A DNA stretch of 64,000 nucleotides from an uncultured Methanosarcinales archaeon (GTDB lineage: Archaea; Nanobdellota; Nanobdellia; Woesearchaeales; GW2011-AR15), in assembly GCA_964428335.1 (NCBI GenBank), contig CAYRXW010000003.1:54246-118245 (forward strand). The letters are read 5' to 3'. Under the pieces are notes generated by a model. The model saw only the letters and a list, made by a program, of their open reading frames with translations, had not been told where the DNA came from and did not search any database. The translations under genes were made by a program, and so were the position numbers. Positions 7,871 to 29,974 of this stretch are shown here, piece by piece (position 1 is the first letter of the stretch; every line of letters starts with the position of its first letter).

Positions 7871-9259
7871 ATGCAGCTGACATCATTACTTTTTTTTGGA
7901 TTCCTTTTAGTTTCATTATTTTCTTTTTATCTTGCCCCAAAAAAGTTCAGGAACTATATCCTGCTTATATCCAGTATCCTATTTTACCTCAGTTTTGGGA
8001 TAAAGCATCTTGCAATAGTAATGCTGATTACATTAATAGGATATGCTTTTTCATTCCTTGCCTATAAAAAAAAGCAATATTCCTATCTTGGGATATCTCT
8101 TCTTGTTCTCTCTTTATTTTATTTCAAATATTATCTTTTTTTCACAGAACTAGTAATGGATTTTGCAAGGCTCCCTGTTTTTGAGATATTGCTGCCTTTA
8201 GGGATATCCTTTTACACATTCCAGATAATCGGCAACCTGCTTGACATATCAAGAGGCAAGGCAAAGCCTGAAAAAAATATCCTCATCTATTCACTAAGCA
8301 TCTTATTTTTCCCGAAAGCTGTTTCAGGACCTATTGAAAGAACAGGCTTTGCCAGCCAGTTCCAGCATAATAACAATTTAGAGCAGGAAAATATAAGATC
8401 AGGACTTACCCTGATGCTTATAGGATATTTCAAGAAAATAGTGATTGCTGACAGACTGGCAGTAGTAGTCAACCAGGTGTTTGGAAACCTGCCATTATAT
8501 ACAGGGATTCCATTGATACTTGCAGGCATCTTCTACCTTTTCCAGCTATACTGTGATTTTTCAGGATATACTGATATTGCAAGGGGGATTTCAAAATTAT
8601 TTGGAAAGGAACTAACGATAAATTTCAAAAGGCCATTCCTTTCAAAAAATGTGAGTGAGTTTTGGAGAAGATGGCACATTTCTCTCTCTACTTGGTTCCA
8701 GGATTACATGTTCAATCCACTTTACTTATGGCTATCAAAAAAAATAAAGATAAATCAGAGCATAAACCACATAATCAATTTCACGATTGCAATACTTATT
8801 GTTGAAACACTTCTTGGGATATGGCATGGCGCAAACCTGACCTTTGCGTTTTTTGGACTGTACTTTGGCATTTTGATTTCACTATATTATATTTCCAGGA
8901 AATATTATGACAGGCTTACGTCGGCTATTCAGATAGGGATTAACTTTTTAGCTTTAGTAATAGGGATGATTATCTTCAGGAGTGGAAGCCTAGCAGAAGC
9001 ATCATACATATTTTCAAACATTACAGATATAACTTTACTGATTCAGGGAATACACCTGAATGTTTCATGGGCAGGCCTAATTATAAACATTTTATTGATA
9101 GCTGGCCTGTTAACCTACGAAATCCTTGTTGAGTTTTTTGGATTTGATTTTTCAAAGCTTAGTGAGCCGGCAAGATTAATATGCTATTCAATACTTTTGG
9201 TAATGATAGCTGTTTTTGGTGCATTCAACCAGGTGAATTTCCTTTACTCGCAATTTTAA
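7871..9259 (+). CDS. MBOAT-family membrane-bound O-acyltransferase (DltB/AlgI-like)
   Basis: 462 aa multi-TM; FWRRWHISLSTWFQDYMFNPL contains the conserved MBOAT His. Confidence 0.8.
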   Translation: MQLTSLLFFGFLLVSLFSFYLAPKKFRNYILLISSILFYLSFGIKHLAIVMLITLIGYAFSFLAYKKKQYSYLGISLLVLSLFYFKYYLFFTELVMDFARLPVFEILLPLGISFYTFQIIGNLLDISRGKAKPEKNILIYSLSILFFPKAVSGPIERTGFASQFQHNNNLEQENIRSGLTLMLIGYFKKIVIADRLAVVVNQVFGNLPLYTGIPLILAGIFYLFQLYCDFSGYTDIARGISKLFGKELTINFKRPFLSKNVSEFWRRWHISLSTWFQDYMFNPLYLWLSKKIKINQSINHIINFTIAILIVETLLGIWHGANLTFAFFGLYFGILISLYYISRKYYDRLTSAIQIGINFLALVIGMIIFRSGSLAEASYIFSNITDITLLIQGIHLNVSWAGLIINILLIAGLLTYEILVEFFGFDFSKLSEPARLICYSILLVMIAVFGAFNQVNFLYSQF

Positions 9260-9260
9260 A

Positions 9261-10211
9261 ATGAAAAAAATAAAAAAAATGATATGGCAGGGAATCTTTA
9301 TCATTGGACTATTTACTGTCCTTTTTCTTGTCCTTAATTTCCTTTATACAGAAACCGTGATAAAAAAGACAGTAACATACAGGAAAAACCAGGAATTCAA
9401 TAGTTTCATAAAAAATGAGACAGTGATAAAATATGCTTTTTTTGGAGGAAGCCATGTTGAAAATAGCATCAATCCAAGATATATCAATGGCGCATATAAT
9501 TTTGCAGGTGGAGCAAAAACTTATTTTGAAGTGTATCTTGACCTAAAAAACCTTATTGAAAAAAACATATCAGTAGAATATGCCTTTTTAGAGCTTGACA
9601 TGCATACTTTTTCATCATACCTTTTTAATTTTGAGCGTCCAGTTCTTGTAAACATATGGCATTACAGCAGGATAACAGATATAGATGAGATACATGAAGC
9701 AACAAAAATCCCTTATATGAAGCTTTTCATAGATTCAAGGTTTCCAGTCTTTGGGAACGGGGAGAATTTTTTCCTGATCAAAAAAGAAAGCGAGATATAC
9801 AATGGCTATGCAAAAAGATACGGAAATTTTTCATATGAAAATGCAGAAGATCTTACAAAAAGAAGGATAGGAAGGCAGTTTAGAAACCAGGAAATGATAT
9901 CAAACCTTACCATGGGCTATTTCATAAAAACATTAAGGCTAGCAAAGGAAAACAACATAACAGTGGTCCTTGTAAAATACCCTGTAACAAAGATATATGA
10001 TGAGACTTTAAGCTCAGTGGTCTCAAAGAAGGACTATTATGAAACTATCCTTTCAAAAGCAGGGAATGAGACAGATGATCTATACATCCTGGACTATTAT
10101 GATATTTATTTTGATAATCTGGAGTACTTTGATGATGCTGACCATATGAACCATATAGGTTCTGAAGCTTTTTCAAAAAAAGTAAGCAAGGATATAGCTA
10201 AATTTAAATAA
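9261..10211 (+). CDS. DltD/AlgX-like SGNH-fold protein, N-terminal membrane anchor
   Basis: N-terminal TM, FFGGSHVENS near the N-terminus and DADHMNH (DxxH) near the C-terminus; operon position after MBOAT. Confidence 0.5.
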   Translation: MKKIKKMIWQGIFIIGLFTVLFLVLNFLYTETVIKKTVTYRKNQEFNSFIKNETVIKYAFFGGSHVENSINPRYINGAYNFAGGAKTYFEVYLDLKNLIEKNISVEYAFLELDMHTFSSYLFNFERPVLVNIWHYSRITDIDEIHEATKIPYMKLFIDSRFPVFGNGENFFLIKKESEIYNGYAKRYGNFSYENAEDLTKRRIGRQFRNQEMISNLTMGYFIKTLRLAKENNITVVLVKYPVTKIYDETLSSVVSKKDYYETILSKAGNETDDLYILDYYDIYFDNLEYFDDADHMNHIGSEAFSKKVSKDIAKFK

Positions 10212-13631: not shown

Positions 13632-14861
13632 TCAGCCCAGTTTTTTAGATATTATTTCAGCTGCAAGGACATTTCCCCTGGTGTTCCAGTGCCCGTCATA
13701 TTCCCAGTGCAGCCTTTCTGTGCTGTTCCTGAAATATGGAAGAAGGTCAAGGTAATCAATATCAATATCTTCTGAAAAATTCATCAATATCCTATTAGGC
13801 TTATCCGTTTCATAGCTATAATCTTTCAGTTCAGGGTAAGTATCTTTTAACCTGTCCCAGTCTTCATCATATACCTGCTCAACAGAAGTAGCAGATACAA
13901 GCAAAAATTTTGCATCATTGCTTTCGCTCAGATTTTTAATCTCTTCAATATACCTTAATTCATCATCCCATCTGCCTTTCCAGGTATCGTCATAATCTTC
14001 TACATAGATTTCATAATTTGTAATATGCTGGTTCCTGTACTTTTTTTCCATCCCCTTGTTTAATACCCTATCTCCAAGCATGCTTGCCTTCTGTATGAAA
14101 AAATCCACAGTTCTTATCTTTAAAATCTTATCCAGGAAAAATCTGCTTTTGCCTGATCCATATTTTTCATATCTAATATTATCTATAATGTCATTTTGCG
14201 CCTGGAAAAGAAGGATGACTTTTTTAGGGTGATAAATGGATGAATAATGCTTCAGAATAGCAAGCTGATCCCTTGTTCCATATCCTCCGACACCGAAATT
14301 ATACACTTCTATTCTTTCATCCTTTTCCTTTAGGCTTTCTTCCAGCTTTACATGCATACAATCTGAATAATTCACATGAAAGCATTCAGCAAATGAATCA
14401 CCTAAAAGGAAAACAACCTCTGAATCGTTTGATGAAAATGCATCATCCAAAAATCCTTCGCTGTTTGATTCCCTGTAAAACCTTGGCCCATCCTTTAATT
14501 CAAAGCAGTGCGTCATTTCTGGAATGAACTTGAACTGCACATCACCAAAAAAATGCTCTTTCTTTGCGGTGCAGCCAAGCAGATTCAAAGAGAGTTCAAA
14601 TATGAATATGCATAATAAAAAAGATAAAATCATAATGGAAATCTCTTTCCTTTTCCTGTATATGAGCCTTGGCCTGATGATAAGGAAAAGGCCTATTAAT
14701 ATTATTATCATATCAACAAAAACTATTGCAAAAAACATCCCAACCCCAGTTATCCTGCTATCAACACTTAAAACCTTACCAACAGTGATAGGATTTAATA
14801 TGAATGCAGAAATTACAACAAGAAAACCAAGAAACCTTATTGCTTTAGGAAAATTCATCAA
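13632..14861 (-). CDS. membrane-anchored SGNH/GDSL-like hydrolase or acyltransferase (AlgX/DltD-like)
   Basis: N-terminal TM; VVFLLGDSFAECF (GDS block I) and C-terminal YDGHWN (DxxH block V). Confidence 0.5.
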   Translation of the reverse strand: MMNFPKAIRFLGFLVVISAFILNPITVGKVLSVDSRITGVGMFFAIVFVDMIIILIGLFLIIRPRLIYRKRKEISIMILSFLLCIFIFELSLNLLGCTAKKEHFFGDVQFKFIPEMTHCFELKDGPRFYRESNSEGFLDDAFSSNDSEVVFLLGDSFAECFHVNYSDCMHVKLEESLKEKDERIEVYNFGVGGYGTRDQLAILKHYSSIYHPKKVILLFQAQNDIIDNIRYEKYGSGKSRFFLDKILKIRTVDFFIQKASMLGDRVLNKGMEKKYRNQHITNYEIYVEDYDDTWKGRWDDELRYIEEIKNLSESNDAKFLLVSATSVEQVYDEDWDRLKDTYPELKDYSYETDKPNRILMNFSEDIDIDYLDLLPYFRNSTERLHWEYDGHWNTRGNVLAAEIISKKLG

Positions 14862-14910: not shown

Positions 14911-15696
14911 ATGAAAAAAGCAATCTTCCTGTTCCTTATTTTTTTAACTGCATGCACTATCACAACAAACGTTATATATGAACCAAAATCAGACATTGAA
15001 GTACATTTCTGCCCCAGGGATATGTGCATGGAGAACCTGATTGAATTGATTGATAAAAGCACAGAGATAAAATGCGCATTCTATGAATTGAACCTGCCTG
15101 AACTGATAGAAGCGTTAAATAAAAAAAATGCAGATGTTGTCATAGAAGACAGCGAATTTGAGGATGAGATGCATGAAGGTTACCATACAGGATATTCATT
15201 TGCCCTCATGCACAACAAGTTCTGTGTTTTTGACAGGAATACAGTATGGAGCGGAAGCTTTAATCCAACTGAGAGAGGAAACTATTATAATAATGAGAAT
15301 GCAATAATGATAAAATCCAGTGCGCTAGCGGAAAATTACCTGGAAGAATTCTATGAGCTGAAAGAGGATGTTTATGGGGAAGGAAGCAAGGTAAAAACTC
15401 CTGTTGTTTATAACGGGGAAATAAAGATAGAGAATTATTTCTGCCCTGAAGACAACTGCAAGCTTCATGTCCTTGAAACACTGAGAAAAAGAAACAGCTC
15501 AATCTATTTCATGACATTCAGTTTTACAGATGAGGACATCGCAAACTTACTTTGGAATTCATACCATGAAGGAATAGAGGTTAAAGGCGTATTGGAAGAA
15601 AGACAGCTTAGCGAACATTCGCAGTATGATACACTAAAAAAATTCTCAATAATTGATACAAATCCTTTCACGATGCACCAAAATATTGCTTTATGA
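14911..15696 (+). pseudogene. two-HKD (PLD-family) secreted nuclease, 5' fragment interrupted by the mobile element
   Basis: Lipoprotein-like N-terminus (FLTACTITT); first HKD motif MHNKFCVFDRNTVWSGSFNPT; ORF ends ...NPFTMH-QNIAL* exactly where the second HKD motif should begin. Confidence 0.7.
15674..15680. repeat. 7-bp direct repeat TGCACCA, left copy (att core/overlap or target-site duplication)
   Basis: Identical heptamer at 36079-36085; both abut the terminal inverted repeats. Confidence 0.7.
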
Positions 15697-15703
15697 ATAC
15701 TTT
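15681..15703. repeat. left terminal inverted repeat AAATATTGC-TTT-ATGAATACTTT
   Basis: Reverse complement of 36056-36078 (AAAGTATTCAT-ATC-GCAATATTT); 20 of 23 positions match and both 9-nt and 11-nt arms are perfect. Confidence 0.7.
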
Positions 15704-15765: not shown

Positions 15766-17073
15766 ATGACTGTTACTAAAGAAATGCTATTCAAATATTC
15801 AAAAAATGGAAAGCTTCATACTGTGAATGAAAAGGCAATAAAAGAGCTAGAACTTGAAAATAAGTGTGTAGCTTATTATTCTAGTTCAAACTTAAATCCT
15901 GAACAAAAAAGCCTTCTAAAGGGTTATTATGAGCATTTACAGGGTACTAGGGATAAAGTTACCAGTATGAAATCCATCTATAATGAGATGATTAATATAT
16001 ATCAGGTCTTACGAAAGGTCAATATTCCTGTTAAATCTATAACTAGAACAGATATTGATAGATATTATGCTAATGCTAGGGATTTGAAAGCTAAATTTGA
16101 GAAAAAGCTCTCTCATTCATCTATAATTCACAGGAATGTGGTTTTTAAGAAGTTTATGAAATGGTATTATGAAACAAAGCTTCGGAAGAAATTCTCAAAA
16201 GATGAATATCCCGCTTGTGTAAACCATCTATCTACTAAAAGAATGGCAAGGGAACTTAATTTAAGTGATTTACCTACAAGATTGGAAACCTTTGAACTAG
16301 TAAAGGTTGCTGATAACCTTAGAGATAAGTTAATTCCTAAGTTTTTAAGGGAAACAGGAGCAAGATGTGGTGAAGTTATTAATCTGAACATTAGTGATGT
16401 TACAGTCCAAGATAAATATGCGGATGTATATTTATATGGAAAGGGTCAGAAGGGAAGAAATATTGTGATTGTGGAGTGTGTTCCTGATATCAAGGAATTT
16501 CTAAATTCACATCCTTATGCAGATAATCCAAATGCTCCTTTTTTCTTGAATATTAGCTATGGATTTTATGGTAGAAGATTACTTTATCTAGGATACTTAG
16601 AAGTTGTTAAAAGATTAGCTTCTAGGGCTGGATTAAAGAAAAATATATCCCCTCATATGTTCAGACATTCAAGAGCTACTGAATTAGCAGCTTTAGGATG
16701 GACTGAACCAATGCTTAGAGAGTATTTTGGATGGTCTAAAACATCCAGAATGCCTACACTTTATGTTCATCTCGGACAATCCGATGTTAAGAAGAAAATA
16801 CTTGAAATGCATGGTCTTCTTAACAAGGAGGAGAGCAAGCAAGACAAGGATGAAAGAAACGCGTTAAAACCTAGGTCTTGTGTTCTATGTAATAAGGAGA
16901 ATCCTTCTGATAAGGTATACTGTGAATGTGGTGCACCACTAGACCTTAAGACAGTAATGCAGGAAAGGAAGAAGAAGGAAGAAACAGAGAACAAGCTTAC
17001 TGAGTTGTTCAGGGATGAAGGATTCCAAGGCTTAGTCTTGGACTATCTAAAAAATAAACAAAAGGTGATGTAA
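15766..17073 (+). CDS. tyrosine recombinase/integrase (XerC/D-like) with C-terminal zinc ribbon
   Basis: Catalytic region HMFRHSRATELA...LYVHLG (R, HxxR, Y); C-terminal CVLCNKENPSDKVYCECGAP. Confidence 0.8.
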   Translation: MTVTKEMLFKYSKNGKLHTVNEKAIKELELENKCVAYYSSSNLNPEQKSLLKGYYEHLQGTRDKVTSMKSIYNEMINIYQVLRKVNIPVKSITRTDIDRYYANARDLKAKFEKKLSHSSIIHRNVVFKKFMKWYYETKLRKKFSKDEYPACVNHLSTKRMARELNLSDLPTRLETFELVKVADNLRDKLIPKFLRETGARCGEVINLNISDVTVQDKYADVYLYGKGQKGRNIVIVECVPDIKEFLNSHPYADNPNAPFFLNISYGFYGRRLLYLGYLEVVKRLASRAGLKKNISPHMFRHSRATELAALGWTEPMLREYFGWSKTSRMPTLYVHLGQSDVKKKILEMHGLLNKEESKQDKDERNALKPRSCVLCNKENPSDKVYCECGAPLDLKTVMQERKKKEETENKLTELFRDEGFQGLVLDYLKNKQKVM

Positions 17074-18347: not shown

Positions 18348-18896
18348 ATGGCAATAAAACCACTACCTATCCATCTTGATAAAAGACGTAAAGTATCAGA
18401 TGAAGATGCTGATGAGATGAGATTACTACATAGAAAGGGTTTAAGCTATGAAAAGATAGCTGATATTTTTGGAGTAACCGATTCTACTGTCAATTATTGG
18501 GTAAATCCTGAATGGAGAAGGAAAAAAATTGAATTATCTAGTAATGATTCTTATGAGAGATATCATTTTGAACCAGAATATAAATTAAAACATAAAGAGG
18601 CTCAGAAGAGAACAGAAAAACGACATGGAAAGAGATTAAAATTATTAAAAGAAGAATATAGAAAACTACATCCTGAAAAAGTAAATGAGGCAAGTAAGAA
18701 TTGGAGAGATAAGAACAAAGAAAAAATAAAACAACTAAATAAACAATATTGGAATGACTATAAGGAAAGGAAATACTATAGTAAAATGATTTGGACATGG
18801 AAAATAAAATTAAGACAAGCTAAAACAAAGAATAGATTAAGGTATTGTAGAGAAAAAATCAAGCATTATCAAACCTTGAAATTTAAGAACCAATAA
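18348..18896 (+). CDS. HTH DNA-binding protein with basic coiled C-terminal region
   Basis: LSYEKIADIFGVTDSTVNYWVN is a sigma70-region-4 or transposase-type HTH; K/R-rich tail. Confidence 0.45.
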   Translation: MAIKPLPIHLDKRRKVSDEDADEMRLLHRKGLSYEKIADIFGVTDSTVNYWVNPEWRRKKIELSSNDSYERYHFEPEYKLKHKEAQKRTEKRHGKRLKLLKEEYRKLHPEKVNEASKNWRDKNKEKIKQLNKQYWNDYKERKYYSKMIWTWKIKLRQAKTKNRLRYCREKIKHYQTLKFKNQ

Positions 18897-18897
18897 G

Positions 18898-19392
18898 TTA
18901 CGGAAAGTATATTTTTATCGTTTCATATATTAGAAATATAATAAGTCCCATTATTATGACAATAGGGATAATAAAAAGTTGATTATCTTTTTGTTGACCT
19001 AAATAGTTAAAAAGAGTTACAAATGCAACAGCAAATCCCGTCAAAGCAATAACTTTATTTATTTTAACTTGTGAATGTTGGATATTCGTCTGTTGTTCCA
19101 TCAATTTAAGTTGATTTTCTGCAATAGTTGTTTGTACTTTTAATAAGTTCATTTCTAATTTATCTTTTATTTTTCTTCTAGTATTATCAGCAAGTTTTCT
19201 AATATTCTCAATAGGATATTCTATACGAGATTCACCTTTTCTAAAGGTTGGTTGAACTTCTGAAACAATGTTTGTTAAATTTTGTTTTGAAATAACAGAT
19301 TTTAAATGTGGTGGTATCTGACCTTGAGATTCAGGATATTTAAGCCAATATTCTAATAATGCTAATCTATGTTCATCTGAAACTGGTTCCAT
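18898..19392 (-). CDS. coiled-coil protein with C-terminal TM anchor
   Basis: 164 aa; C-terminal hydrophobic stretches FAVAFVTLFNYL and IIPIVIIMGLIIFLIY. Confidence 0.35.
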   Translation of the reverse strand: MEPVSDEHRLALLEYWLKYPESQGQIPPHLKSVISKQNLTNIVSEVQPTFRKGESRIEYPIENIRKLADNTRRKIKDKLEMNLLKVQTTIAENQLKLMEQQTNIQHSQVKINKVIALTGFAVAFVTLFNYLGQQKDNQLFIIPIVIIMGLIIFLIYETIKIYFP

Positions 19393-19444: not shown

Positions 19445-20365
19445 TTAGTTAGTGTCTTTATTCGTATAAAATTCTACCATAATCGGATAATGGTCTGAAA
19501 CATCAACAGTTAACTCACTGTCTAGTTCATATTCTTCATCGAATCTAAATATCCTATACTTACCAACATAATCCTCCATTGTTTCTTTTGTAACAATAAT
19601 TCTATCATATGTGCAATCTGTTGATTTTGTTGTTGTGTCCTCATCATTAGGTATTAATTGAATGTAGGTTTCTTCATCTAATGGAATATTATCTTCATCT
19701 AAATAAGTACAATCAGCATTTAGGTCACCTAGTATAATGTAATCTTCTTCACCTTCAAAATGAGTTCTAGCATCATTTACTACTTCATCCAGAACAGCAA
19801 TTTCATTTTCTGCATCCTCTGGTTTGATGTGATTGTTAATCATAACGAAGTCAAAGCTGCCTGATTTAAATTGTGCAACTAATGGCTCTCTTTCAAAGTC
19901 ATCATTGGTATCTTCATATACATAAGCAGAATCTTCAATATACTGTATGTTATTTGTCTTATAGATGATTGCATAATTTTCTTTGCTACTACTTCTTCCT
20001 AATCTTGGACTCATAATAAAATCATAAGTGGAGTTTTCACACAGTCCATTAATGGCATCTACATATATTTCAGCAGTTGTTTCTGTATCATCTCTTAGTT
20101 CTTGGATAGCCAATACATCAAAGTTACATGCGATGTTAGTTAAAATATCCATAACGTCTTCTTTTTCTCTTTTACTTTCACCAAATATTTGAATGTTAAA
20201 ACTACCAACTATAATGGTTTTATTAGATTGAGTCTTATTCGTTTCAGCAACAACATTGCCATTATATGGTTCAGGTTGTGAATAATAAAAAAAGGCTGCA
20301 ATTATGAGTATGAGAATAATTAGTATAAAAAAGATAATAATTAACCTTTTGGTTTTCTTACGCAT
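19445..20365 (-). CDS. secreted/membrane-anchored endonuclease-exonuclease-phosphatase (EEP) family nuclease
   Basis: N-terminal TM; VGSFNIQIFGESK, DVLAIQEL, GDLNAD, SDHYPIMVEF are the EEP catalytic blocks. Confidence 0.7.
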   Translation of the reverse strand: MRKKTKRLIIIFFILIILILIIAAFFYYSQPEPYNGNVVAETNKTQSNKTIIVGSFNIQIFGESKREKEDVMDILTNIACNFDVLAIQELRDDTETTAEIYVDAINGLCENSTYDFIMSPRLGRSSSKENYAIIYKTNNIQYIEDSAYVYEDTNDDFEREPLVAQFKSGSFDFVMINNHIKPEDAENEIAVLDEVVNDARTHFEGEEDYIILGDLNADCTYLDEDNIPLDEETYIQLIPNDEDTTTKSTDCTYDRIIVTKETMEDYVGKYRIFRFDEEYELDSELTVDVSDHYPIMVEFYTNKDTN

Positions 20366-23229: not shown

Positions 23230-23376
23230 ATGGGGCGAAAGACGGTAGCTTTAAGCGTAAATGCTGAAATCTATGATATGTACAAGGCATTCTGTGAAGA
23301 GAATTCCATAATACTTTCTCGTAAGTTTGATGCTTTTATGAAAAAGGAATTACAGAAGGCAGGTAAACATGAATAA
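23230..23376 (+). CDS. small ribbon-helix-helix protein overlapping the hsdR start (candidate controller of the RM operon)
   Basis: 48 aa [48 protein letters not shown]; RHH-like beta strand plus two helices; stop overlaps hsdR ATG by 8 nt; below the 60-aa track cutoff. Confidence 0.45.
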
Positions 23377-25699
23377 GAAAGACCTAACTGAAACAGACAT
23401 ATGTACAAAATACATTACGCCTGCAATAGTTCATGCTGGATGGAATTTGCAAGGTCAAATACGACAAGAAGTATTTTTTACAAATGGAAGAATTATAATT
23501 AATGGAGATAAGGTCACGAGAGGAGAAAAGAAAAGAGCAGACTATATTCTCTACTATAAACCAAACATACCTATCGCAATTATTGAAGCAAAAGACAATA
23601 ATCACTCTGTTGGTGCAGGTCTTCAACAAGGGTTAGGTTATGGTGAAACATTGGACTTACCTTTTGTTTTTAGTTCTAACGGAGATGCTTTCATAGAACA
23701 TGATAGAACTGGAACTTCAAAAAAGGTTGAAAAAGAATTGTCTTTAACAGAATTTCCTAAACCCGAAGAGCTTTGGGAAAGATACAAAAAATGGAAAGGA
23801 ATAAGCACAAAAGAAGAGACTATTATTACTCAAGATTATCATATGGGTGCTACAACTAATAAGCCAAGATATTATCAAGAAATAGCAATTAACAGAACTG
23901 TTGAAGCAATAGCAAAAGGTCAAGATAGAATTTTATTAGTTATGGCAACAGGCACAGGAAAAACATTTGTTGCATCACAAATAATCTACAAGTTATGGAA
24001 ATCTAAAGCTAAGAAAAGAATATTATTTTTAGCCGATAGAAATATTCTTATCGACCAAACAAAGAATAATGATTTTAAGATTTTCAAAGGAGCTATGACT
24101 AAGATATCCCATAGAAAAATCGATAAATCATACGAAATTTATTTAGCTCTTTATCAAGGAATGACTGGAGAAGATGATTTGAAAAATATCTATAAAGAAT
24201 TCTCAAAAGATTTCTTCGACCTAATAGTAATAGATGAGTGTCATAGAGGAAGTGCATCTGCGGACTCTGCATGGAGAGAAATATTAACCTATTTCAAAGA
24301 TGCTACGCAAATAGGATTAACTGCGACACCTAAGGAAACAAAAGAAATATCTAATTCAGATTATTTCAGAGAACCAATTTACACATACTCGCTAAAACAA
24401 GGTATTGACGACGGATTCTTAGCACCTTATAGAGTTATCAGAATATCTTTAGATAAAGATGTTGAAGGATGGAGACCAACAAAAGGTAAAAAGGATAAAT
24501 ACGGAAACCTAGTTCCTGATAGAGTTTACAATTCTAAAGATTTTGATAGAGATTTAGTTATTGACGAAAGAACGACCCTTGTCGCTAAAAAAGTAACTGA
24601 ATTCTTAAAAAATACTGATAGAATGGACAAAACTATTGTGTTCTGCATAGATATAGACCATGCTGAAAGAATGAGGATGGCACTAGCAAATTATAATTCT
24701 GATTTAGTTTCAAAAGATGTTAGGTATGTAATGAAGATTACAGGTGATGATGATATTGGCAAAAAACAATTAGACAATTTCATAGACCCTTCTAGTAAAT
24801 ATCCTGTGATTGCAACAACTTCCAAATTAATGACAACGGGTGTTGATGCACAAACTTGTAAACTGATAGTTCTAGATTCAAATATTCAATCGATGACAGA
24901 ATTTAAACAGATAATTGGAAGAGGAACAAGAATAAGAGAAGATTATGGAAAATACTATTTTACTATCATGGATTTTAGACAAGTAACAAATCTATTTGCA
25001 GACCCTGATTTCGATGGAGACCCAGTTCAAATATACGAACCAGACCCTGATGAAGTTCTAAAACTACCAGAGATTAATGAAGCTGAAAAGATTTACGCTT
25101 TACCTATTGACCAAATAAAGATTTCTGAAGCTAAAGAAACTCCACGAAAATATTATGTGAATAATGTTCAAGTTTCAGTCTTAAATGAGAGAATACAATA
25201 TTATGATAAGAATGGAAAATTAATTACTGAATCTTTGAAAGACTTCAGCAAAAAATCAATCAAGAAAGAATACTCTTCACTTAATAACTTCATTCAGAAA
25301 TGGAATAGCACTGATAAAAAATCAGTAATTATAGATGAATTAACCAATCAAGGCGTATTACTTCACGAACTTAAAAAAGAAGTTGGAAAAGAGTTTGATG
25401 AGTTTGATTTGATATGTCATGTTGCTTTTGATAAGAAACCATTGACGAGAAAGGAAAGAGCAAACAATGTCAAGAAACGAAACTATTTCACAAATTATGG
25501 TGAAAAAGCAAAAGCAGTTCTAAACGCACTTCTAGATAAATATGCAGATGAAGGACTGGAAAATATCGAAGATATAAGCGTATTAAAAGTAAATCCTTTT
25601 ACGAAGTTTGGAACTCCGATTGAGATAATCAGAGCGTTTGGTGGAAAAGAGAAATACCATGACGCATTAATAGAATTAGAGCAGGAATTATATGCTTAA
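23369..25699 (+). CDS. hsdR: type I restriction enzyme R subunit
   Basis: VMATGTGKT Walker [11 protein letters not shown] (DEAH box), 776 aa. Confidence 0.9.
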
Positions 25700-25708
25700 G
25701 AGGGAAAA

Positions 25709-27139
25709 ATGTCTATATCAGCAACAATAAAAACAATTCAAGACATCATGCGAAAAGATGCGGGTGTAGATGGAGATGCACAAAGAATCTCACAAATAGT
25801 GTGGATGATATTTCTAAAAGTATTTGATGACAAAGAGAAAGAATGGGAATTAGAAGAGAAATACAAATCAGCAATACCAGAAAAATTAAGATGGAGAAAC
25901 TGGGCATCAGATTCTGAAGGAATTACGGGAGAAGAACTGCTTGACTTTATAAATAATGAATTATTCAAAAAACTCAAGAATCTTTCTATAACAAAAGAAG
26001 ATAATCCAAGAGGATTTATTGTTAGAGAAGTTTTTGAAGATGCTTATAATTATATGAAATCCGGCACTTTAATAAGACAAGTAGTCAATAAATTAAATGA
26101 AGTAGATTTTAACAAAACAGAAGACAGACACCTATTCAATGATATCTATGAAAATATTCTAAAAGACTTACAAAGTGCAGGAAATGCGGGAGAATATTAC
26201 ACACCAAGAGCTGTAACTCAATTCATAGTTGATATGGTGAATCCTAAACTAGGAGAAAAGATTCTCGACCCTGCATGTGGAACTGGTGGATTTTTAATCT
26301 GTAGTTTAGAACATTTAAAAAAACAAATAAAAAATATAGATGATAGAAAAAAAGTTCAAAAGAATCTAAATGGTATTGAAAAAAAGCCATTACCTCATTT
26401 ACTATGCACTACTAATTTGATATTGCACGATGTAGAATTGCCAAATATAAGGCACGACAACTCTTTAGCAAGACCCTTGAGAGATTATAACTCTTCAGAT
26501 ATGGTTGATGTGGTTGTAACGAATCCTCCTTTTGGAGGAGCAGAAGAAGAAGGAATTGAATTTAACTTCCCTACTGGTTTTAGAACAAGAGAAACAGCTG
26601 ATTTATTTTTACAACTAATAATGAAACTTCTTCGTGATGGAGGTAGATGTGGCATTGTATTGCCTGATGGCGGTATTTTATCAGGTGATGGTGTTGAAAA
26701 AAATATTCGAGAGAAATTATTAAATGAGTTTAACCTTCATACTATTGTAAGATTACCAAATGGTGTCTTTAATCCATATACGGGTATTAAAACTAATCTT
26801 TTATTTTTTGAAAAAGGAAAACAAACTAAAGATATTTGGTATTTTGAACACCCACTGCCTGAAGGATATAAAACATACAATAAAGGGAAACCAATTCAAA
26901 TCAAAGAATTTGATTTAGAAAAGGAATGGTGGAATAATCGAACTGATGAGAAATTTAGCAAATATTGTTGGAAAGTTAGTGTAATTGATTTAAAAAATTT
27001 CAATCTTGATATTAAAAATCCAAATTTCACAGTAAAAAGTCATGATATGACTGCTTCAGAAATTATTTCTGCTTTAATAACTTCATTTGACAAAAGTAAA
27101 GATTTGGTAAACAAGATTAAAGGGGAAATAAGACGATGA
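25709..27139 (+). CDS. hsdM: type I restriction-modification M subunit (N6-adenine MTase)
   Basis: DPACGTGGFL motif I and VVTNPPFGG motif IV. Confidence 0.9.
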   Translation: MSISATIKTIQDIMRKDAGVDGDAQRISQIVWMIFLKVFDDKEKEWELEEKYKSAIPEKLRWRNWASDSEGITGEELLDFINNELFKKLKNLSITKEDNPRGFIVREVFEDAYNYMKSGTLIRQVVNKLNEVDFNKTEDRHLFNDIYENILKDLQSAGNAGEYYTPRAVTQFIVDMVNPKLGEKILDPACGTGGFLICSLEHLKKQIKNIDDRKKVQKNLNGIEKKPLPHLLCTTNLILHDVELPNIRHDNSLARPLRDYNSSDMVDVVVTNPPFGGAEEEGIEFNFPTGFRTRETADLFLQLIMKLLRDGGRCGIVLPDGGILSGDGVEKNIREKLLNEFNLHTIVRLPNGVFNPYTGIKTNLLFFEKGKQTKDIWYFEHPLPEGYKTYNKGKPIQIKEFDLEKEWWNNRTDEKFSKYCWKVSVIDLKNFNLDIKNPNFTVKSHDMTASEIISALITSFDKSKDLVNKIKGEIRR

Positions 27140-28425
27140 GTACATGGAAAAAGTACAAATTGGGCGATTTGATTACTGAATCTAAGATACTTTCAATTAA
27201 CTCAAACCCTGATAAAAGGATAACCGTTAAGCTAAATCTAAAAGGTGTTGAAAAGAGACCGATATCGAATGATGTGGAAGGAGCTACTAAATATTATATT
27301 AGAAAAAAAGGTCAATTCATATATGGCAAACAAAATTTACACAAAGGTGCTTTTGGAATAATTCCATCAGAATTAGATGGTTATGAATCTAGTGCAGATA
27401 TCCCTGCATTTGATGTAAATCCAAAATGTAGACCTGAATGGATTCTTTATAATTTAAAAAAAGATGACTACTATTTAACTTTAGAGCAATTTGCCATTGG
27501 CAGAGGTTCAAGAAGAATTCATCCTCACCAAATTGAACATTTAGAGATACCCGTTCCACCAATAGCTGAACAAGATAAATTATTATTAAAACTATATGAT
27601 GTTGAAATCTTAAATGCTGAATTAAAAAATGAACAAAATAATCAAATAAAACTAATCTCATATTTTCGTCAAGCAATTATTACTGATGCAATTCTGGGAA
27701 AAATAGTTCCATCTGATTCTAAAGATGAAGATGCAAATGTATTGCTTAAAAAAATTAAGGCTGAAAATAAACTTGAACCTGTTCTTGAAAAAGAAGTGCC
27801 GTATCAAATTCCACCTTCTTGGAAATGGGTTAGATTGGGAGAAATCTGTGATAAAATAGGTTCTGGTAGTACTCCTCGTGGTGGAAAAGAAGTATACAAA
27901 TCAAGTGGAATTAAATTTATTCGTTCACAAAATGTTTACAATGAAGGATTAGTTTTTGAAAATGTGGCCTACATCGATAATTCTATTCATATTAAAATGG
28001 CTGGAACAAAAGTTATTCCTAATGATATTTTATTAAATATAACTGGTGGTTCAATTGGAAGATGTGCTTTAGTTTCTTCTGATTTTGATGAAGCAAATGT
28101 AAGTCAGCACGTTACAATCATTAGACTTAAACAAGGTTTGATAAATCGATTTATACATTTAGTTATTTTATCATCTTACTTTCAGAATAAGATAATGGCG
28201 GTTCAGACAGGTGGGAACAGAGAAGGATTAGCGAAAAAGAATATGCAAATGATGTTGATTCCTCTTCCACCAATTGTTGAACAGCAACGCATTATTAAAA
28301 GAGTAAATCAATTAATGGAATTTTGCGATGAGCTTGAATCTCAAGTTAAGAATAGTCAAAAAAATTCTGAATGGTTAGTAGGTGCGGTCTTAAAAGAAGC
28401 ATTTAATGAGGGGTTTGTTGCATAA
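27136..28425 (+). CDS. hsdS: type I restriction-modification S subunit
   Basis: Two target-recognition domains separated by conserved helical repeats (EQDKLLLKLYDVE... and EQQRIIKRVNQLMEFCDELE); overlaps hsdM by 4 nt. Confidence 0.85.
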   Translation: MSTWKKYKLGDLITESKILSINSNPDKRITVKLNLKGVEKRPISNDVEGATKYYIRKKGQFIYGKQNLHKGAFGIIPSELDGYESSADIPAFDVNPKCRPEWILYNLKKDDYYLTLEQFAIGRGSRRIHPHQIEHLEIPVPPIAEQDKLLLKLYDVEILNAELKNEQNNQIKLISYFRQAIITDAILGKIVPSDSKDEDANVLLKKIKAENKLEPVLEKEVPYQIPPSWKWVRLGEICDKIGSGSTPRGGKEVYKSSGIKFIRSQNVYNEGLVFENVAYIDNSIHIKMAGTKVIPNDILLNITGGSIGRCALVSSDFDEANVSQHVTIIRLKQGLINRFIHLVILSSYFQNKIMAVQTGGNREGLAKKNMQMMLIPLPPIVEQQRIIKRVNQLMEFCDELESQVKNSQKNSEWLVGAVLKEAFNEGFVA

Positions 28426-29375
28426 TGGTTGCCAAAGGAAAATCTTTTGAGAAGCAGACAGAACTGTTCTTTAGAGAGTTCTTTGAAGGAATAGGTTATC
28501 TCGTTGTTGAAATAAGAGTTCAGAAAGCGGGAACTCAATATGGTTTTGATGTTCTAGTTAGAATTTTAGATGAGAATAATGTTGAAAGAAAGATACATTT
28601 AGAATGTAAAGATTACTCTGTCTCTCTTGATTGGAAAGAATTTTTAGATAAAATAGTTCAACTAGACGCATCTGCTTATGTTCCAGATATATTTATAGGA
28701 CTATCTCCCAAGGCAAGCGTAAGTAATGTTAACCATAGCAGTTTAGAAAACTTAAGAACAAAATTAAGATTTCCAATAAGATTATGGTCTCCTGATACTA
28801 AACTTGAAGAACTATTTGCAATAAATGAAACAGTTTATCCATTAATATATGGAACTGCCAAAATTCCAACAGTAGATAAAATTAAACTTCTAAAAGATTA
28901 CAAAGTAATTATTAAAGCATTATTAGATGAAAAATTACTAATGGGTCTTACTAACAAGATAATAATTAACTGTGCAACTAAAGACCCAAAAGAAGATAAA
29001 TTTTTAAAAATTAATTTGGATAAGAAACTAGATGCGGTTTTTGATGAAAAAGACCCTGTCAGGATTGAATATCATAAGTTAAGATGCGATTATAAAATAT
29101 ATCTTGAAGAATTAGAAGATGTCAATAATGAACTCAGGACTAATATTATACGATGGCAAAACGACTTAAGATTAATGGCAGAAAGACTTACGAGAAAATT
29201 TAAAGATGATGTCAATTACACGCCAAAACAGTTTTTTAATGAATTTTTTACAGAAGCTGATAAACGACTCTATGTCTTTTTTAATAACGAGCATTATTCA
29301 GGAGATGTAGAGAAACTGCTTAATGGTATAATTTTCGAATTAGCGGCTGAATGCCCATTGGATTGGAAAAGATGA
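28425..29375 (+). CDS. Mrr-like PD-(D/E)xK nuclease-domain protein (candidate Lamassu LmuA-like effector)
   Basis: N-terminal GYLVVEIRVQKAGTQYGFDVLV...IHLECKDYS fits the restriction-endonuclease D...ExK pattern; start overlaps the hsdS stop (TAATG). Confidence 0.5.
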   Translation: MVAKGKSFEKQTELFFREFFEGIGYLVVEIRVQKAGTQYGFDVLVRILDENNVERKIHLECKDYSVSLDWKEFLDKIVQLDASAYVPDIFIGLSPKASVSNVNHSSLENLRTKLRFPIRLWSPDTKLEELFAINETVYPLIYGTAKIPTVDKIKLLKDYKVIIKALLDEKLLMGLTNKIIINCATKDPKEDKFLKINLDKKLDAVFDEKDPVRIEYHKLRCDYKIYLEELEDVNNELRTNIIRWQNDLRLMAERLTRKFKDDVNYTPKQFFNEFFTEADKRLYVFFNNEHYSGDVEKLLNGIIFELAAECPLDWKR

Positions 29376-29974
29376 TGGATACTCAGATAAATCAACTGAT
29401 AGAACGAATTGGAGAGAAACAACTCACTCCTTCTATTAATTTAGAGAGACCTATTTTTGTTCAACCAGAAGATTTGATTAAATACCGTGCATCAAGAATA
29501 ATCTTAATCTGTGGTATGATAAATACTAAAAATGGATTAAGTAGGGAAATTATATCCTGTGTAGATTTTCTTCTTAGAAATAGCGGATATCAAAAGAAGT
29601 TTATCATTGAGTATTTCAAAGACCAAAAGAACTTATTGGAAAAAATAAATAAATATACACCACAAAATAATGTGGAAACTGATTTTAATATCATTCAATA
29701 CAAAAGTGTGCCTTGGGACTTACGATTTAACGATATGTTTTTATTCTTGTATGTGAGAAAATTAGTACGATTCATGGGAGAAAAATCAAATCTACGAGTA
29801 TTTTTGACAGATACAGGTATGAATTACTTTGAAAATTTAAAAGACGTATTTTTAGATGAAGTTAACTTTTTAGAGATATTTGGCAAAAGATTAGATGAAG
29901 AAAAAACAAAAGAAATAATTACCCAAGTAATACCTAATGCGTATTGGCGAGAAAATGAGAAACTTAATTATTAA
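29351..29974 (+). CDS. hypothetical protein, middle gene of the three-gene module (LmuC-like position)
   Basis: 207 aa; overlaps both neighbours by 25 and 38 nt. Confidence 0.35.
   Translation: MPIGLEKMMDTQINQLIERIGEKQLTPSINLERPIFVQPEDLIKYRASRIILICGMINTKNGLSREIISCVDFLLRNSGYQKKFIIEYFKDQKNLLEKINKYTPQNNVETDFNIIQYKSVPWDLRFNDMFLFLYVRKLVRFMGEKSNLRVFLTDTGMNYFENLKDVFLDEVNFLEIFGKRLDEEKTKEIITQVIPNAYWRENEKLNY

Follow-up and report, generated by a model that had tools for sequence, protein, structure and literature searches.

Contig CAYRXW010000003.1 of assembly GCA_964428335.1 was analysed over a stretch of 64 kb (64,000 nucleotides), here called the window. In it, a 20,398-bp element with an integrase gene at one end lies inside a gene for a phospholipase D (PLD) family nuclease-like protein, and the question is how it came to be there. 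The ends of the element are 23-nt inverted repeats abutted on the outside by a directly repeated heptamer, TGCACCA. A preliminary description of the sequence had read this geometry in two ways, as the divided core site of a tyrosine recombinase and as terminal inverted repeats (TIRs) with a 7-bp target-site duplication (TSD). We conclude that the element is an integrated mobile defence island of a Woesearchaeota-like DPANN archaeon, splitting the PLD gene, and that it was very probably inserted by its own Xer-like integrase through conservative site-specific recombination.

Element boundaries and the interrupted gene

The features at and around the two junctions are the following.

14911 to 15680, plus strand: 5' part of the host gene, with a lipoprotein-like signal, the complete first HKD/PLDc_2 domain, and the second up to Met-His-(His) (open reading frame [ORF] and Pfam PLDc_2)
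15674 to 15680, plus strand: left heptamer TGCACCA, the putative overlap (crossover) region of the left attachment site, attL; codons ATG CAC CA of the second HKD motif
15681 to 15703, plus strand: integrase-proximal arm, with inner box AAATATTGC, spacer TTT, and outer box ATGAATACTTT; a putative integrase-binding half-site
15766 to 17073, plus strand: tyrosine recombinase (integrase) of 435 amino acids (aa), with Xer-like core-binding and catalytic domains, a C-terminal CxxC...CxC zinc ribbon, and a helical tail
36056 to 36078, minus strand: integrase-distal arm, an inverted copy, with outer box at 36056-36066, spacer at 36067-36069, and inner box at 36070-36078
36079 to 36085, plus strand: right heptamer TGCACCA, the putative overlap region of the right attachment site, attR
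36079 to 36605, plus strand: 3' part of the host gene, with the rest of the second HKD domain (HHKVFIID...) and a lamin-tail domain (Pfam PLDc_2 and LTD)

At the left end, the heptamer (15674-15680) is followed by AAATATTGC (15681-15689), TTT, and ATGAATACTTT (15693-15703). At the right end, AAAGTATTCAT (36056-36066), ATC, and GCAATATTT (36070-36078) precede the second heptamer (36079-36085). The 9-nt and 11-nt boxes of the two arms are perfect reverse complements, and 21 of the 23 arm positions pair because the mismatch is confined to the 3-nt spacers (TTT versus GAT, read in the same sense). The direct repeat is exactly 7 bp, since the adjacent bases differ on both sides. Letters and positions thus stand as they were first described, and the 23-nt pattern occurs exactly twice in the window, at the two element ends and on opposite strands, with a chance expectation of 0.12 matches when up to three mismatches are permitted. 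The 9-nt and 11-nt boxes were not over-represented elsewhere in the window, and further arm-type repeats looked for near the element ends were not found. An unbiased scan around integrase genes, scoring a 7-bp direct repeat plus a 26-nt inverted repeat with a maximum of 33, gave this element 30/33; at about 180 unrelated loci, neither the real nor the control scans went beyond 24 to 25/33. The element so delimited, 15681-36078, has a guanine-plus-cytosine (GC) content of about 0.29, versus about 0.35 in the flanks.

Joining 14911-15680 to 36086-36605 yields an uninterrupted 429-aa protein with a lipoprotein-like signal, two PLDc_2 (HKD) domains, and a lamin-tail domain, in the order PLDc_2, PLDc_2, LTD. 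The heptamer spans ATG CAC CA within the Met-His-His-Lys codons of the second HKD motif. An intact 430-aa protein, P0094, shares 88% identity with this reconstruction, and the contig that encodes P0094, L220, runs colinear with the window to the left and to the right of the element (L220 10098-10770 with window 15005-15677, and L220 10767-11674 with window 36079-36992). The empty site in L220 holds one copy of the heptamer, in the context ACGA-TGCATCA-TAAGG. Because the gene in L220 is intact and has a single heptamer, the insertion was exact. The site also matches CCTTTCACGA-TGCACCA-TAAGGTTTTC, the target attachment site (attB) that the preliminary description had predicted for related strains, with three substitutions. 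The same description had named a protein-coding gene rather than a tRNA gene as the target, which agrees with the restoration of the PLD ORF on joining the flanks and with the empty site in L220. No tRNA genes or Rfam features were found in the window. Homologues of both the PLD gene and the integrase come from Woesearchaeota and other DPANN archaea.

In the 43.6 kb of host DNA in the window, fifteen other TGCAYCA sites are unoccupied, and the host gene's own first HKD motif, which reads TGCACAA, has not been used.

Two observations concern the surroundings of the junctions. A GDSL-lipase-like ORF (13632-14861, minus strand) directly precedes the PLD gene in the window, and in the syntenic L220 an unrelated 379-aa gene (8861-10000, plus strand) holds that place; this position is a second variable spot beside the integration site. 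At the right end, the last T of the arm and the first two bases of the heptamer form TTG (36078-36080), a candidate start codon that could serve the displaced 175-aa C-terminal PLD/LTD fragment.

An intact integrase beside one arm

The integrase gene is the first gene of the element and starts 62 nt inside the left arm. Its product is the only recombinase detected in the element. The catalytic domain matches Pfam PF00589 (2.3e-21), the catalytic residues R200, K226, H297, R300, W323, and Y333 are invariant or nearly so in alignments of 31 and 39 sequences, and Cys372, Cys375, Cys386, and Cys388 of the C-terminal zinc ribbon are conserved in the family alignments. When the family profile (alignment A1) was compared with sequences in the PDB, XerA was the best match (4a8e, 1e-35; also 5hxy), followed by XerD, XerH, and IntI4. 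An AlphaFold (AF2) model with a mean predicted local distance difference test (pLDDT) score of 89 shows the two-domain C-clamp fold, core-binding plus catalytic, and its top Foldseek matches are XerA (5hxy/4a8e), the DNA-bound XerH-difH complex (5jjv/5jk0), and IntI4. The preliminary description had deduced an Xer-type tyrosine recombinase from the repeats, and an intact Xer-like enzyme is indeed encoded just inside the left arm.

Two more specific identities were considered for this protein and rejected. It is not an orthologue of the chromosomal XerA: against NF040815 (recomb_XerA_Arch) it scores 98.9 bits, below the cut-off of 220, its gene lies within a low-GC insert, and it has an additional zinc ribbon. 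Nor is it an SSV-type ("suicidal") integrase, as the ORF at 15766-17073 is intact and the attachment core ends 62 nt upstream of it.

Library scans with Pfam, PHROGs, NCBIfam, and PADLOC covered element ORFs of at least about 110 aa plus two shorter ones. They detected no transposase, Cas1, or serine recombinase, and no DDE or HUH enzyme.

Related integrases at the same seven bases

Scans of genome, metagenome, and viral collections with a broad integrase alignment returned mostly distant relatives, and L001-L003 held the only PLD-adjacent integrases among the matches listed. The integrase at these three loci, P0002, was the closest in the first search (42% identical to the window integrase) and seeded a second protein search, which found further members of the clade. 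P0002 occurs in three independent assemblies, where it adjoins a PLDc_2 fragment starting at MHHK with an identical junction each time. Apart from L001-L003, a search for TTTATGAATA gave chance matches only.

Both ends of the element are present in L003. Its left junction reads CTTG / TGATGCA / TATTAGTGA-TTT-ATGAATATAAT, and its right junction ends in TTATTAATA / TGATGCA / TATTGGCAGG. The layout is again 7+9+3+11, with TGATGCA as direct repeat and 20 of 26 arm positions paired; the repeat scan scored 28/33, versus 24 for the null. Once joined, the N-terminal part of the host protein and the displaced C-terminal part are colinear with intact PLDs and align to them free of indels.

Four further elements add to these. 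At L225 (P0215), L226 (P0216), and L227/L228 (P0220), the integrase abuts a PLD fragment on the opposite strand that is cut at (M/V)HHK. At L233 (P0219), the N-terminal part of a single-HKD PLD gene lies on the integrase strand, as in the window, and the junction reads TGCACCA / CAAGTTTGG-TTA-ATGAACTACAT. Six independent junctions (window, L003, L225, L226, L227/L228, and L233) therefore share the same 7 nt within the HKD codons, and the heptamer is always TGCAYCA, on one strand or the other, in the same codons. Arms laid out as 9+3+11 with an outer (T)TA-ATGAA box are common to the window, L003, L225, L226, L227, and L233, and the integrase gene sits at a fixed position beside one arm in all six elements. 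Orientation relative to the PLD gene varies: two elements (window and L233) lie one way and four the other. The integrases of the five other elements are 33 to 42% identical to that of the window. Among themselves, the six are 34 to 46% identical, with the exception of the close pair L226/L227 (79%), and in a rough UPGMA (unweighted pair group method with arithmetic mean) tree the PLD-linked integrases cluster together, apart from tRNA-abutting relatives.

Outside this group, the repeat scan of about 180 other integrase-family loci gave nothing above the control level. The right ends of L225, L226, L227, L229, and L231 were not found by the scan because the elements exceed the 10-kb flank or the contigs end. 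Among near neighbours in sequence, P0222 and P0226 (34 to 36% identity) and P0221 were not adjacent to a PLD gene. About 30 of 180 more distant integrase relatives abut a tRNA gene; at these loci, which lie among L006-L157 (for example L107, L132, L090, L156, and L043), the end of the tRNA gene is about 25 nt or less from the integrase start, on the same strand. tRNA genes appear to be the common target of the wider integrase family. At L231/L232 (9103-11692), in two assemblies, an integrase lies directly downstream of a TctA-family gene, which may be another protein-coding target; this integrase is 27% identical to that of the window and 34% to P0002, and the ends of the element were not found within 10 kb.

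The elements at the PLD site differ in their other genes. The integrase is the sole protein common to the window and L003 elements, whose other genes are unrelated, and the wide variation in cargo indicates that the integrase and its sites form a module common to different elements. A type I restriction-modification system is carried by the Woesearchaeota element at L225 (11218-16308), in inverted gene order and with an HsdR about 65 to 80% identical to that of the window. The L225 integrase is merely 34% identical to that of the window despite the similar HsdR, which suggests that restriction-modification cargo has been swapped between elements. At L227 (10001-21563) and L228, the clade integrase stands at the end of elements with a large terminase subunit (Terminase_6N), HNH endonucleases, and LemA, and by its gene calls alone the contig carrying P0217 also has a terminase. 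These terminase-bearing elements (L227, L228, and the P0217 contig) are probably tailed proviruses of DPANN archaea.

In L003, a second PLD C-terminal fragment (19083-19299, minus strand; LHHKVFVIDNK...ARNH*) lies just inside the integrase-distal arm; the displaced host fragment is at 9739-9912. The second fragment is in frame with the N-terminal part of the host gene by way of a linker encoded by the arm, with an 18-aa insertion relative to intact homologues, and the chimera is recognised by Pfam as a single complete PLDc_2 domain. In place of the heptamer the fragment reads TTCATCA, so it does not constitute a second attachment core. The fragment may be a module that re-completes the target gene. 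Nothing comparable to this substitute PLD end is present in the window element, and its host gene is not restored.

A probable conservative site-specific reaction

It is well established that tyrosine recombinases exchange strands conservatively, without DNA synthesis. A 7-bp overlap between inverted binding sites is the standard core for them, and XerA and XerH, the nearest relatives of the integrase, use such sites. Were the window element excised as a free circle, its ends would abut as a 53-bp near-palindrome, AAAGTATTCAT-ATC-GCAATATTT / TGCACCA / AAATATTGC-TTT-ATGAATACTTT, the element's attachment site (attP), with the predicted circle junction AAAGTATTCATATCGCAATATTT-TGCACCA-AAATATTGCTTTATGAATACTTT. 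That a circular element would carry arm, heptamer, and arm follows from the integrase being the agent, and the inverted repeats would be the two halves of the attP core. Integrase protomers would bind the inverted arms flanking the 7-bp overlap, with parts of the protein presumably reading the two boxes of each arm. The complex would then pair with attB, that is, TGCAYCA and neighbouring bases coding for the Met-His-His-Lys of the HKD catalytic motif. Y333 would cleave at both edges of the overlap, and strand exchange would proceed via a Holliday junction. As no DNA is synthesised in such a reaction, the 7-bp "duplication" would consist of one attP copy and one attB copy. Orientation would depend on which way the asymmetric overlap points with respect to the symmetric arms, and the two orientations observed could arise if the overlap centre (TG-NNN-CA) is turned one way in some lineages and the other way in others. 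The element may still be mobile.

A site-specific reaction fits the distribution of insertions, because the same 7 nt are used in six of them, the position of the integrase gene is fixed, and both the 15 TGCAYCA sites and the TGCACAA of the first HKD motif are unused. What marks the element as a site-specific integrative element is an integrase beside one end, identical junction segments, an empty site, and relatives at the same site. Of the two wordings in the preliminary description, the Xer-type core of arm, 7-bp overlap, and arm is therefore the one to keep, given the integrase, the lack of a detectable transposase, the L220 empty site, and five further elements at the same site. The wording of TIR plus 7-bp TSD describes the same geometry but implies the wrong chemistry.

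Several points weigh against insertion by the integrase. Both ends are in hand for two of the six elements. The search for TIR copies within host DNA covered the window, and the search for an excised circle or attP junction covered IMG/VR, where it yielded three unrelated hairpins and no such junction. The flanks of attB are only weakly arm-like (roughly YAA..TT, on the C-terminal side), and the occurrence of both orientations would also fit a transposase blind to orientation. Finally, the role of the integrase is read from its sequence and a structural model, and its activity is predicted.

Alternative explanations

Among the alternatives, the one that survives best is a "tyrosine transposon" of the kind represented by TnPZ of Helicobacter pylori, which would require only the heptamer TGCAYCA in a loose context and so could enter many loci, the recurrence of PLD genes being a matter of sampling. 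The chromosomal loci at which TnPZ is inserted are many and have only AAGAATG in common, and the element encodes a type IV secretion system (PMC2731543). TnPZ/ICEHptfs elements use the XerT recombinase, have a 7-bp direct repeat that is single at empty sites, and lie in either orientation (PMC2731543). Their geometry, with 13- to 14-bp terminal inverted repeats, is identical to that seen here (PMC2731543), both orientations occur here as well, and the attB flanks show little similarity to the arms. Such an element would not be expected to fall six times out of six in the same PLD codons, in different hosts and with integrases that are mostly 34 to 46% identical, nor to leave 15 TGCAYCA sites in 43.6 kb of host DNA empty. 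In addition, clade neighbours at 34 to 36% identity occupy other loci, for example TctA, without the heptamer context. We consider this explanation unlikely.

Were the element a classical transposon, moving by cut-and-paste or replicatively, a transposase would bind the 23-nt TIRs, the heptamer would be a TSD made by a staggered cut and repair, and the integrase would be cargo or a resolvase. A TIR with a flanking direct repeat of fixed length is the textbook signature of such elements, and about 40% of the element's ORFs are unannotated. Against it stand the library scans, which detected no DDE, HUH, Cas1, or serine enzyme, and the "TSD" itself, which is identical in sequence and position across six independent insertions. 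The integrase gene is fixed beside one arm in all six, and it encodes the only protein common to the window and L003 elements. The preliminary description had also proposed looking for further copies of the 23-nt TIR, many copies at loci lacking an integrase being what an insertion-sequence (IS) explanation would predict. We ran this search on the window, 220 fetched loci, and IMG/VR. Within the window the TIR was found only at the two element ends, it was absent from the 220 loci, and the exact search of IMG/VR returned one match, inside an ORF of a phage of higher GC content, which we judge to be chance. We regard a classical transposon as highly improbable, and a DDE/IS-type transposon or miniature inverted-repeat transposable element was rejected as a class: no transposase was found in four libraries, the TIR is present only at two ends within the window, and the supposed TSD is constant (TGCAYCA, same codons) rather than variable between insertions.

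Still less weight can be given to integration in the manner of integrative mobile elements exploiting Xer (IMEX), in which the chromosomal XerA of the host would use the palindromic ends as a mimic of dif and the element's integrase would be dispensable. Inverted arms around a 6- to 8-bp centre are indeed the layout of dif, and the nearest relatives of the integrase are Xer proteins. The element nevertheless has a complete recombinase of its own, which IMEX lack by definition, and that recombinase falls far below the XerA orthologue cut-off (98.9 bits versus 220). The target is a coding motif that recurs with the integrase clade, not dif, and the arm sequences co-vary with the integrase lineage. 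The IMEX class was rejected on the same two grounds, an integrase encoded by the element and a coding motif as target. The element was also considered as a casposon and rejected, there being no Cas1 or PolB matches.

A chance resemblance or assembly artefact has next to no probability: the element comes from a single metagenome-type assembly and no second assembly of it was found, but the chance expectation is far below 1, the gene is precisely restored and its empty site is seen in L220, and the same architecture recurs in the L003 element, for which three independent assemblies show one and the same junction.

Genes carried by the element

Besides the integrase, the following genes were recognised or are of notable size.

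18348 to 18896, plus strand: small HTH_7 (resolvase-type helix-turn-helix) protein (Pfam HTH_7, 2.8e-7; PHROGs transcriptional regulator and DNA-binding families)
19445 to 20365, minus strand: endonuclease/exonuclease/phosphatase-family (EEP) protein, putatively membrane anchored or secreted (Pfam PF03372; N-terminal hydrophobic segment in the translation)
23369 to 28425, plus strand: type I restriction-modification system, with hsdR at 23369-25699, hsdM at 25709-27139, and hsdS at 27136-28425 (Pfam; PADLOC REase_I, MTase_I, and Specificity_I)
28425 to 31946, plus strand: Lamassu-like three-gene block, with a gene for a 316-aa protein, an LmuC-like gene at 29351-29974, and an LmuB-like SMC/ABC ATPase gene at 29937-31946
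32302 to 33951, minus strand: 549-aa protein with no match in any library, dissimilar to the large protein of the L003 element
35041 to 36057, plus strand: 338-aa protein with no library match; the stop codon of its gene extends into the beginning of the right arm

The defence cargo occupies 23369-31946, where a complete hsdR/hsdM/hsdS set is followed directly by the Lamassu-like block. In that block, PADLOC matched LmuB at 2e-59 and LmuC at 1e-5; the 316-aa gene, in the position of the effector, had no match in any library. No type IV secretion system families or conjugation genes were found in the Pfam scans, and BLASTP comparison of the large unannotated proteins of the window element with those of the L003 element showed no homology. 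The HTH_7 protein is, from its domain matches, a candidate regulator or directionality factor. The element breaks a secreted PLD/lamin-tail nuclease-like gene yet brings its own PF03372 gene (19445-20365, minus strand), which could be a functional substitute for the split gene or a counter-measure. Inside the element's hsdR there is an extended target-like string, TGCATCACAAA (23971-23981; TGCAYCAYAAR), which is probably incidental.

Relation to known systems

Integrative elements whose own tyrosine integrase is devoted to a conserved position within a protein gene are already known, and the present element is of this kind. For its geometry, the closest precedent by analogy is TnPZ/ICEHptfs with XerT, with which it shares an element-encoded Xer-family recombinase, a 7-bp repeat, short terminal inverted repeats, and both orientations. 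It departs from TnPZ in its DPANN host, in having no detected conjugation genes, and in its target, which is PLD HKD codons in all six known insertions. As in XerA/dif, XerH/difH, and Cre/loxP, two inverted arms surround an asymmetric centre of 6 to 8 bp that sets direction; it differs from these in its 23-nt two-box arms, in an attB that is not a second copy of the palindrome, and in the extra zinc ribbon and tail of the integrase.

Archaeal non-partitioning (pNOB8-type) integrases likewise have an intact gene adjoining the attachment site, but the target here is a protein gene in place of a tRNA gene, and the direct repeat is 7 bp long, against tens of bases for theirs. tRNA targets, as Williams is said to have noted in 2002, offer a 7-nt loop between inverted stems. 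Protein-coding genes are targeted by other integrases too, those of phage 21 and e14 in icd among them, and at least one relative of the window element (L003) resembles protein-gene integrases in bringing a substitute gene end. Similar, too, are the dusA-specific integrases (PMC4482086), a clade that serves a single conserved site within a protein gene. The present case departs from the dusA type in an identity segment of just 7 bp, in a target made up of catalytic-motif codons midway along the gene, in the occurrence of both orientations, and in leaving the gene in the window unrestored.

What appears to be new is the HKD-codon target of PLD genes, the DPANN hosts, and insertion in both orientations with an identity segment of no more than 7 bp. 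Integrases targeting PLD/HKD in DPANN archaea were not described in the literature searched, which does not disprove that they exist elsewhere. Since related integrases hit the same seven bases in other archaea, we see a familiar mechanism acting on a new target; conceptually the finding is only modestly surprising, because the mechanism is conventional tyrosine-recombinase chemistry.

A broader proposal can be put forward tentatively, as one that we hold to be slightly more likely wrong than right in its full form. An undescribed clade of archaeal Xer-like integrases would have switched from tRNA genes to the HKD codons (TGCAYCA, Met-His-His) of secreted PLD genes in DPANN archaea. Its members would mobilise unrelated cargoes, both restriction-modification/Lamassu islands and proviruses with a terminase, through a minimal near-palindromic attP with 7 bp of identity to attB, inserting in either orientation by virtue of the quasi-symmetric TG-NNN-CA. 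Some elements would re-complete the gene with a substitute PLD C-terminus, and others, the window element among them, would knock it out and bring a different secreted nuclease.

Implications

Little of the mobile-element repertoire of DPANN archaea has been mapped. With exact boundaries, a target rule, and a recognisable integrase clade, islands and proviruses of this type can be delimited in metagenome-assembled genomes, and defence genes of the type I restriction-modification and Lamassu kinds travel on such Woesearchaeota islands. The system is compact, with a protein of about 435 aa, a predicted 53-bp attP, and a short attB within a coding motif that is widely conserved, and it might become a simple integration tool for archaea. 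For the host, integration inactivates a gene for a secreted PLD-type nuclease-like protein, and in one relative the element apparently re-completes that gene. If the broader proposal is true, elements that knock the gene out and bring another secreted nuclease suggest that these elements and their hosts interact in part through the control of extracellular nuclease activity.

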